A stretch of 64,000 nt of DNA, from positions 1 to 64,000 of IMG/VR virus record IMGVR_UViG_3300037400_003528, one strand, 5' to 3'. The translations under genes and the position numbers were made by a program. Below, piece by piece: positions 11,095 through 11,312 of this stretch (the stretch's first letter is position 1; each line of letters opens with the position of its first letter). The notes under the pieces were generated by a model. The model was not told the DNA's origin. It was given only the letters and a program-made list of their open reading frames with translations, and did not search any database. The DNA is from a virus.

Positions 11095-11167
11095 AGCCCG
11101 CCGGAGAATCGAACTCCGATTTCTGGTTTTAGAGACCAGCGTCTTAAACCGTTTGACCACCGAGCCA
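11095..11167 (-). tRNA. suppressor tRNA, anticodon CTA (reads UAG); anticodon arm CTGGT-CTCTAAA-ACCAG
   Basis: acceptor GGCTCGG/GCGGGCT (6/7 bp), 3-bp D-stem GTC/GAC, T-arm CGGAG-TTCGATT-CTCCG, discriminator A. Confidence 0.75.
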
Positions 11168-11254
11168 TACCAAGACAGATTAAAAATTGCTTAAATTAGA
11201 TTAACAGTCCAATGCAAAAATTAAAAACAAATTGCTGTTTCTGTCTTTCTTTCA

Positions 11255-11312
11255 TCTTATAAATATATTATATAATAATTTTTTTAAAAAATCAAAAAAT
11301 TTTTAAATACGG
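11255..11312 (-). promoter_or_regulatory. promoter plus conserved leader (GAAAGACAGAAACAGCAAT) driving the suppressor tRNA/tRNA-Ser operon
   Basis: revcomp TTG..-N17-TATAAT then leader motif shared with two other transcription starts. Confidence 0.5.

Follow-up and report, generated by a model that had tools for sequence, protein, structure and literature searches.

Which amino acid does a phage insert at in-frame TAG codons when it carries its own tRNA for them? This question is raised by a minus-strand tRNA gene with the anticodon CUA in a 64,000-nucleotide stretch of viral DNA (positions 1 to 64,000 of the IMG/VR record IMGVR_UViG_3300037400_003528, hereafter the window). The window is low-GC phage DNA (~31% GC), and the analysed 64 kb belong to a genome of roughly 140 kb. 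A preliminary description of the window had called the gene an amber suppressor at 11095-11167 and had left its amino acid open as Gln, Trp or another residue. The gene is real, although its coordinates were one base off (11094-11166 by Rfam). Protein alignments and the tRNA body, two independent lines, agree on glutamate. It is therefore highly likely, on comparative grounds, that this phage reassigned UAG from stop to glutamate and that the tRNA at 11094-11166 is the decoder.

The codon is found in six plus-strand late genes (53688-63641), which contain 13, 21, 19, 13, 9 and 2 in-frame TAGs, 77 in total, and in two minus-strand genes. These genes and their TAG-free neighbours are as follows.

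53688-54809, plus strand: late gene with 13 TAGs, which align with Glu in relatives
54802-56013, plus strand: YonG-like gene with 21 TAGs (about half of its Glu codons); YonG_N is found in a 98%-identical relative
55982-57754, plus strand: large terminase TerL (YonF-like) with 19 TAGs, including columns 148, 193 and 301
58253-59923, plus strand: portal-like gene with 13 TAGs; its homologue is the portal in Geobacillus virus E3
59934-61289, plus strand: YonD_N-like head gene with 9 TAGs, named from annotated relatives
61299-61922 and 61892-63028, plus strand: two structural genes that are TAG-free by count, the second a YonB-like capsid gene
63096-63641, plus strand: late gene with 2 TAGs by count
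23694-24956 and 24953-26590, minus strand: two CW_7-repeat cell-wall genes, one with a metallo-beta-lactamase fold and 6 TAGs, the other with GH114 and 2 TAGs

The Glu-type codons of the six late genes are 77 TAG, 16 GAG and 161 GAA; TAG accounts for ~30%. These counts support the earlier matching of an amber suppressor to heavy in-frame TAG use. Heavy use in the plus-strand late genes holds as described, but TAG is not confined to them, as the minus-strand genes at 23694-26590 carry it too. The cell-wall gene TAGs, including the six in 23694-24956, lie in variable columns and are uninformative on the amino acid. TAG is absent from the early minus-strand genes and from the major capsid gene of the window. 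In every recoded lineage (L018-L047; related loci are numbered with the prefix L), whether it reads TAG as Glu or as Gln, little or no TAG occurs in the capsid gene and the gene just upstream, and the flanking genes are TAG-rich. TAA and TGA are the remaining stop codons, and TAA is the main one (about 75 of 92 open reading frames, ORFs). ORF-length totals, standard and with single-stop read-through, were tried as an indicator of the code and dropped; at 31% GC, the removal of any stop lengthens ORFs. Because such totals cannot identify the code, homologue alignments were used.

With TAG masked as X, the six late proteins were compared by tblastn with DNA from 47 related loci. DNA was used instead of stored proteins because the latter show Q wherever a recoded relative has TAG. 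Single alignments span whole TAG-bearing proteins, for example TerL over 576 amino acids at 73% identity. In standard-code phages, the residues opposite TAG were E (65), K (21), D (16) and Q (12). This profile is that found opposite the Glu codons of the window and unlike that opposite its Gln codons. TAG pairs with GAA or GAG in every relative; in L006, the 76 codons opposite TAG include 48 for Glu, 6 GAT and 2 for Gln. Close relatives swap TAG with GAA/GAG, and L046 (82% identical) has 25 TAG, 28 GAA, 9 GAG and 2 CAA opposite the TAGs of the window. We scored the amino acids in a likelihood test with substitution frequencies taken from non-TAG positions of the same alignments. Glu was the maximum-likelihood residue in 12/12 standard-code comparators, and the log-likelihood (lnL) of E exceeded that of Q by 1.5-92.6. 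The preliminary description had proposed to align TAG positions with homologues, TerL among them. In these alignments they correspond best to one residue, Glu.

In TerL, TAG stands at columns 148 and 301, where 22/22 standard-code homologues have Glu, down to 34% identity. It also stands at column 193 (21 E, 1 D), beside the invariant E194, and at column 528 (Glu in 21/22). The hhhh[E/D]E motif at 193/194 would read as Walker B, which is a motif reading only; TerL had no match in the PDB by either sequence or profile search. In the YonG-like and portal proteins, too, TAG falls in several columns where Glu is invariant. All five Gln-invariant TerL columns are CAA or CAG in the window. Furthermore, in a different phage with a Glu-type suppressor (L049), a TAG of a GT2 glycosyltransferase gene aligns with the conserved Glu of four solved GT2 enzymes.

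We also reversed the test onto the TAGs of the relatives. Fourteen loci came out as Gln, L030, L046 and L047 as Glu, and L031 as Tyr. Phass-1, which like its relatives has been described as TAG to Gln (translation table 15, or code 15), was left unscored since it has too few aligned TAGs. The outcomes differ among relatives, and the method therefore discriminates. The 14 Gln loci, at 48-53% identity, have TAG at columns such as 74 (Gln in 21/21) and 389 (Gln in 22/22). In L031 (IMGVR_UViG_3300035498_000629), TAGs lie opposite TAT (5), TTT (4) and TTA (1) of the window, and eight TerL TAGs are at Tyr/Phe columns, one of which is Tyr in 22/22 homologues. L031 probably represents a third amber reassignment in the family, TAG to Tyr. 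In a neighbour-joining TerL tree, which carries no support values, the window groups with L044/L045 (98% identical), L046 and L047. This Glu clade falls within the standard-code relatives and away from the Gln clade, and L030 is on a separate branch. In each of the 120 nearest public TerL clusters (75-96% identical), 1-8 of the 14 Glu-invariant columns hold Q, and the Gln-invariant columns hold no residue other than Q. Translation of the DNA of the relatives (L044-L047 contigs) with table 11 does not match the stored proteins. The stored Q at Glu columns indicates that the TAGs were called with code 15. As judged by these comparisons, the Glu clade has many members, and public data mistranslate it systematically.

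The phage itself has a packaging/head module like that of Bacillus phage SPbeta (YonG, YonF, YonD and YonB, from annotated relatives). In TerL, its identity is 46% with Enterococcus phage H1, 44% with Geobacillus virus E3 and 42-43% with Phass-1, with which gene order is also shared. The TerL of an unannotated human-gut fragment is 73% identical. On this basis we classify the phage as an SPbeta-like gut phage, with Phass-1 in the same family. A Pfam search of the late proteins gave zero matches, even with TAG rendered as E, and their identities rest on annotated relatives.

The second line of evidence is the tRNA. ARAGORN found 29 tRNA genes in the window, 28 of which form a minus-strand array at 6.7-19.6 kb. 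Rfam adds two, giving an array of 30 tRNAs; both, a Leu(UAA)-like gene and tRNA-Gln(UUG) at 19347-19416, are called at a lowered ARAGORN threshold. The tRNAs that bear on the isotype are listed below.

11094-11166, minus strand: amber-suppressor tRNA(CUA) with a tRNA-Glu body (ARAGORN, Rfam, covariation and database matches)
16326-16401, minus strand: phage tRNA-Glu(UUC); 5/7 acceptor pairs, including G1.U72 and U4.G69, and A73 as in the suppressor
17541-17617, minus strand: phage tRNA-Glu(CUC); its body differs from that of the suppressor
19347-19416, minus strand: phage tRNA-Gln(UUG) (Rfam, lowered-threshold ARAGORN); its body is unrelated to that of the suppressor

The suppressor matches Rfam RF00005 at 11094-11166 (minus strand, 53.4 bits, E 1e-8), and the ARAGORN call is 11091-11167 (minus strand) with anticodon CTA. 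G1 is at 11166 and A73 at 11094, and CCA is not encoded. The acceptor stem has 7 bp, with G1.U72, C3-G70 and U4.G69, and a G7.G66 mismatch at its base; the 8-bp acceptor drawn by ARAGORN is the same stem plus a U(-1):A73 pair only. In the D-arm, U8 and G9 are followed by the 3-bp stem GUC/GAC (G10-C25, U11-A24, C12-G23) and an 11-nt loop made of an A13.A22 mismatch and 9 nt, with GG present. The anticodon arm has the 5-bp stem CUGGU/ACCAG and the loop CUCUAAA, the variable loop is AAAU (4 nt, no nucleotide 47), and the T-loop is UUCGAUU. The loop CTCTAAA with anticodon CTA is as given in the preliminary description, and the anticodon stem CTGGT/ACCAG and the 3-bp D-stem with an 11-nt D-loop are also as it described them. 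Over six suppressor homologues and two annotated tRNA-Glu, 97.5% of the cells of the cloverleaf alignment are paired. Compensatory change was found in 15/20 cloverleaf pairs, which 0/500 shuffles match, and the D-stem is invariant in the eight sequences. The minimum-free-energy fold of the single sequence gave no cloverleaf (z = -1.65) and was set aside in favour of covariation. ARAGORN labels the gene 'Pyl', which is merely its name for a CUA anticodon. A tRNA-Pyl would have a 6-bp anticodon stem, a 3-nt variable loop and a small D-loop that lacks G18G19, and would be accompanied by pylS/pylBCD. It is ruled out by the 5-bp anticodon stem, the 4-nt variable loop, GG in the D-loop and the canonical T-loop, and no Pyl genes were found among the window proteins scanned.

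A blastn search of the suppressor against 50,697 phage records returned annotated tRNA-Glu as the best long matches. The tRNA-Glu(UUC) of the Lactobacillus prophage Lj928 shares with the suppressor the G1.U72/A73 acceptor type, the T-loop and the whole anticodon stem CUGGU/ACCAG, and its D-arm differs at two loop bases. Enterococcus phage phiSHEF13 has a tRNA-Glu(UUC) of this type too. The suppressor shares G1.U72, A73, U8, G9, the D-stem, A13.A22, the 4-nt variable loop and the T-loop TTCGATT with Firmicute-type tRNA-Glu(UUC). It differs in the anticodon loop, which is CUCUAAA instead of YUUUCAY, with CUA for UUC, and in the G7.G66 mismatch, which is common to L050, L052 and L059. The augmented D-helix features (three Watson-Crick pairs, U11-A24, A13.A22 and no nucleotide 47) are present in 8/8 aligned sequences; Sekine et al. 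in 1996 reportedly defined tRNA-Glu by such features. The D-arm had been described as unusual, and the anticodon stem as resembling that of tRNA-Trp. The D-arm is in fact of the standard tRNA-Glu type, and the Trp-like reading of the stem is superseded by its identity with that of Lj928 tRNA-Glu(UUC). The anticodon YUC of tRNA-Glu is not kept. U35 is retained and position 36 has changed from C to A, which is the sole anticodon position that differs from CUC. By comparison of tRNA bodies, the suppressor is shown to be a Firmicute-type tRNA-Glu whose anticodon has turned into CUA. Of the residues left open earlier, it is thus 'other' that holds, as Glu, and Gln and Trp are disfavoured by the likelihood test, the TerL columns and the tRNA body.

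In Phass-1, a member of the Gln clade, the suppressor has U1, G2, G3 and G73, and its CCA is encoded; this body is of the Gln type. The window tRNA does not have the traits of such a body (weak or unpaired U1, G2-C71, G3-C70 and G73). The D-arm plus CUCUAAA-loop pattern was found in five IMG/VR contigs and in two tRNA-bearing contigs of metagenome-assembled genomes (MAGs); a broader pattern scan of IMG/VR for tRNA(CUA) had no contigs of the family's Gln clade among the matches listed. In L060, a Bacillota MAG contig, the suppressor is identical to that of the window and lies in a syntenic array that is 89-93% identical. Within the family, the link between tRNA type and code is drawn from the window and the near-identical L060 versus Phass-1. 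Phass-1 (L053, OQ749652.1) also has a second tRNA(CUA) of 91 nt at 26442-26532, which adjoins its Gln-type suppressor and has a long extra arm and a D-arm like that of a phage tRNA-Gln.

How might the suppressor be expressed? The preliminary description had given it its own promoter and a shared leader motif, in a transcript that continues into tRNA-Ser(GCT). The following elements were located.

11267-11295, minus strand: sigma-70-like promoter TTGATT-17-TATAAT (consensus scan, 10/12), 100% conserved in L060
11231-11249, minus strand: leader motif GAAAGACAGAAACAGCAAT, ~18 nt past the -10 element
10996-11084, minus strand: tRNA-Ser(GCT), 9 nt downstream of the suppressor (ARAGORN, Rfam)
15947-16007, minus strand: second promoter-plus-leader cassette, upstream of tRNA-Met (15803-15876)

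The motif GAAAGACAGAAACAGCAAT has four minus-strand copies, against 0.04 expected by chance. The copies at 11249 and 15965 are parts of a ~150-nt duplicated promoter-plus-leader cassette, which precedes the suppressor and tRNA-Met, respectively. The other two copies, AAAAGACAnATACAGCAAT at 9509-9565 and 13840-13897 (minus strand), are followed by a T-arm-like hairpin ATGGGTTCRARTCCCAT, where no full tRNA was called. Promoter-like sites in this AT-rich region number 93 against 62 expected, and the promoter call therefore rests mainly on conservation: the cassette is 100% conserved in L060, and the array overall is 89-93% identical. A cassette of promoter and leader that belongs to the suppressor is plausible. 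The order of suppressor then tRNA-Ser(GCT), with its 9-nt gap, is confirmed; it is common to the window, L049, L052 and L060, and the two tRNAs are probably co-transcribed. In L049, the suppressor lies 4 nt after tRNA-Val without a promoter of its own, and thus the dedicated promoter is lineage-specific. A promoter of the sigma-70 type would suggest early, not late, synthesis of the tRNA. In a permissive Rfam scan of 10700-11500, the two tRNAs were the only matches, with no ribozyme beside the suppressor; whether the Rfam 15 models include the theta (HDV-like) ribozyme that adjoins the 3' end of certain suppressor tRNAs was not verified.

These elements allow a pathway to be proposed. The suppressor would be transcribed with tRNA-Ser(GCT) from its sigma-70-like promoter and then processed, and its CCA end would be added by cellular enzymes. 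The host glutamyl-tRNA synthetase (GluRS) would charge it with Glu, as the D-arm determinants U11-A24, the 13:22 mismatch and the absence of nucleotide 47 are kept. GluRS mainly recognises the augmented D-helix, and U34/U35; the non-discriminating GluRS of bacteria without glutaminyl-tRNA synthetase (GlnRS) does not read position 36 strictly. GatCAB picks tRNA-Gln through U1-A72 and the D-loop. The suppressor is without these GatCAB features, and therefore its Glu would stay Glu: with G1.U72 and A73 instead of U1-A72 and G73, neither conversion to Gln-tRNA by GatCAB nor capture by GlnRS would be expected. If the host has a non-discriminating GluRS together with GatCAB, the choice between Glu and Gln could be set by the suppressor body as a GatCAB substrate. 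TAG-rich genes would be fully translated only in cells with enough suppressor, tying late protein synthesis to the phage's own translation apparatus. It is plausible, as the preliminary description proposed for the timing of its expression, that the suppressor tRNA gates translation of the TAG-containing late genes.

Several points weigh against the assignment to glutamate. Three TerL TAGs are in non-acidic columns, and 1/77 TAGs is in a Gln-conserved column (gene 54802-56013, codon 255). In E. coli, a CUA anticodon attracts GlnRS, and some Gln insertion at TAG may still occur. GluRS normally reads position 36, which is changed here, so that the host enzyme would have to tolerate A36. A Bacillota host is suggested by the MAG binning of L060 and the CW_7 lysin repeats only. 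Since 64 kb of roughly 140 kb were seen, another decoder or a phage synthetase could lie elsewhere. The support for Glu is strong but wholly comparative.

The Gln-conserved column is also what would be expected if the phage used ordinary code 15, with the suppressor charged with Gln by GlnRS, or with Glu followed by GatCAB, and TAG read as glutamine as in crAss-like phages, Lak phages and Phass-1. TAG to Gln is the reassignment reported for TAG-recoded phages, and public gene callers already use code 15 on these genes. However, Gln ranked second to sixth in the likelihood test and never first, while the same test picked out the true Gln relatives. Code 15 would place Gln at TerL sites that are Glu in 22/22 homologues and in the acidic pair 193/194, TAG of the window is never at Gln-invariant columns, and the suppressor lacks U1-A72, G73 and a Gln-type D-stem. 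We consider this explanation very improbable. A mixed outcome deserves more weight, although it is still unlikely: TAG might be decoded mostly as Glu and partly as Gln, or the suppressor might compete with release factor 1 (RF1), giving a mixture of Glu, Gln and termination and a lower yield of late proteins. Costly or imprecise decoding would account for the avoidance of TAG in the capsid gene and the gene just upstream, which all recoded lineages show, and no release-factor or synthetase gene was found in the window. On the other hand, TAG occupies invariant, probably catalytic acidic sites and makes up as much as half the Glu codons in one gene, which argues for accurate and efficient decoding.

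Two further explanations concern the tRNA itself. A suppressor derived from tRNA-Trp, or from another isotype, would insert Trp or another residue; its anticodon stem has 3/5 pairs in common with the phage tRNA-Trp, and in the predictions of Kienbeck et al., 19% of phage suppressors have a Trp isotype. However, Trp is 82-187 lnL units below Glu wherever it can be scored, zero TAGs align with a Trp column, the stem is identical to that of a tRNA-Glu, and the phage tRNA-Trp is low in the pairwise comparison. The chance of such an origin is nearly negligible. The tRNA(CUA) might also be a bystander or pseudogene, with TAG read by a host factor or by an element elsewhere. The partial view of the genome leaves room for this, and suppressor tRNAs were found in only 40% of TAG-recoded genomes (Borges et al.). 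Yet the gene has the score of an ordinary tRNA, L060 carries an exact copy of it within an array of only 89-93% identity, compensatory changes are seen between lineages, and its isotype matches the amino acid deduced independently from the proteins. A bystander role is thus highly improbable, and the suppressor with a tRNA-Glu body is retained as the decoder of TAG as glutamate.

Besides the suppressor, other features were observed in the window and its relatives. A full-length ROOL RNA (RF03087, 279 bits) lies inside the tRNA array at 14887-15483 (minus strand) and is partly conserved in L049 and L060. In L049, the contig with the Glu-type suppressor, a transfer-messenger RNA (tmRNA) with the tag peptide GNYSYAMAA is inside the tRNA array (3426-3735, plus strand). 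Homing-endonuclease-like genes dot the array of the window (10091-10729, 7942-8397 and 12548-13174, all minus strand; PD-(D/E)XK with or without NUMOD1, and HNH). A PD-(D/E)XK/NUMOD1 gene is inserted downstream of the suppressor/tRNA-Ser pair and is absent from the otherwise collinear L060. The gene at 3978-5573 (minus strand) adjoins the array and encodes a 531-amino-acid protein with DUF2828, DUF7788 and vWA-like domains; its neighbour, the ORF at 5960-6748, is weakly nucleotidyltransferase-like. An 808-amino-acid TAG-free protein encoded at 27634-30060 (minus strand) matches the major-vault-protein shoulder and repeat domains and SPFH/Band 7, which is unusual in a phage. At ~40700-48900, ~8 kb contain no ORF above ~215 amino acids on either strand in the standard, TAG-sense and TGA-sense codes, and the GC content of 0.36-0.40 is above that of the rest of the window. 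tRNA-Lys at 40129-40202, just upstream, is the sole Rfam gathering-score match thereabouts. This region may hold many tiny genes or undescribed RNAs.

A stop codon that became glutamate is known from the nuclear code of peritrich ciliates (NCBI table 30), in which TAA and TAG are Glu; to our knowledge, this is the only stop-to-Glu code. The peritrich code and that of the phage share the change from stop to glutamate, but the former is eukaryotic, genome-wide and includes both codons, whereas in the phage TAA is the main stop and a subset of genes is involved. The amber suppressors made from E. coli tRNA-Glu by Kleina, Normanly, Abelson and Miller (1990) are said to insert mainly Glu, with some Gln misinsertion. 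They have a tRNA-Glu body and a CUA anticodon like the phage tRNA, but were engineered, whereas the phage suppressor is natural and conserved across phage lineages. Code 15 phages (crAss-like, Lak and Phass-1) are similar in other ways: they also encode a tRNA(CUA), concentrate TAG in structural, packaging and lysis genes, lack it in early genes, are presumed to have a standard-code host, and have no synthetase found. They differ in that Gln is inserted through a Gln-type tRNA body, instead of Glu through a Glu-type body.

According to the survey of Borges et al., TAG to Gln and TGA to Trp are the only changes seen where the phage code differs from that of the host, a pattern that they attribute to GlnRS and TrpRS being susceptible to suppressor tRNAs. 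Their hypothesis for code-15 phages is the same gating idea as that considered above. Kienbeck et al. described 180 phage suppressors with predicted isotypes Gln, Trp, Ile and Tyr, and no Glu. Cook et al. used preset tables 15 and 4 only, and a jumbo-phage survey used tables 15 and 90 only. We found no report of TAG to Glu in a phage or bacterium in the searchable literature, whose coverage is incomplete, including a 2026 code-survey preprint. Stop-codon recoding by a phage through a suppressor tRNA is known, and glutamate, the most likely inserted residue, would be new to it.

If true, TAG to Glu contradicts the generalisation of Borges et al., and GluRS would also be recruitable. Tools limited to codes 4, 11 and 15 write Gln at every TAG of the Glu clade. 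This would put wrong residues at probable catalytic sites and carry errors into homology searches, predicted structures and the databases used in metaproteomics. Genetic-code engineering may also benefit from a natural Glu amber suppressor. With moderate confidence, we propose that UAG as Glu is a code unrecorded for any phage or bacterium, which is used by a large human-gut SPbeta-like clade, and that amber was captured independently within this one phage family for at least three amino acids through different tRNA bodies: most recoded relatives would read it as Gln, this clade and L030 as Glu, and L031 probably as Tyr. A family with standard-code members, members with TAG as Gln or as Glu, and possibly members with TAG as Tyr would be a natural system for stop-codon capture.

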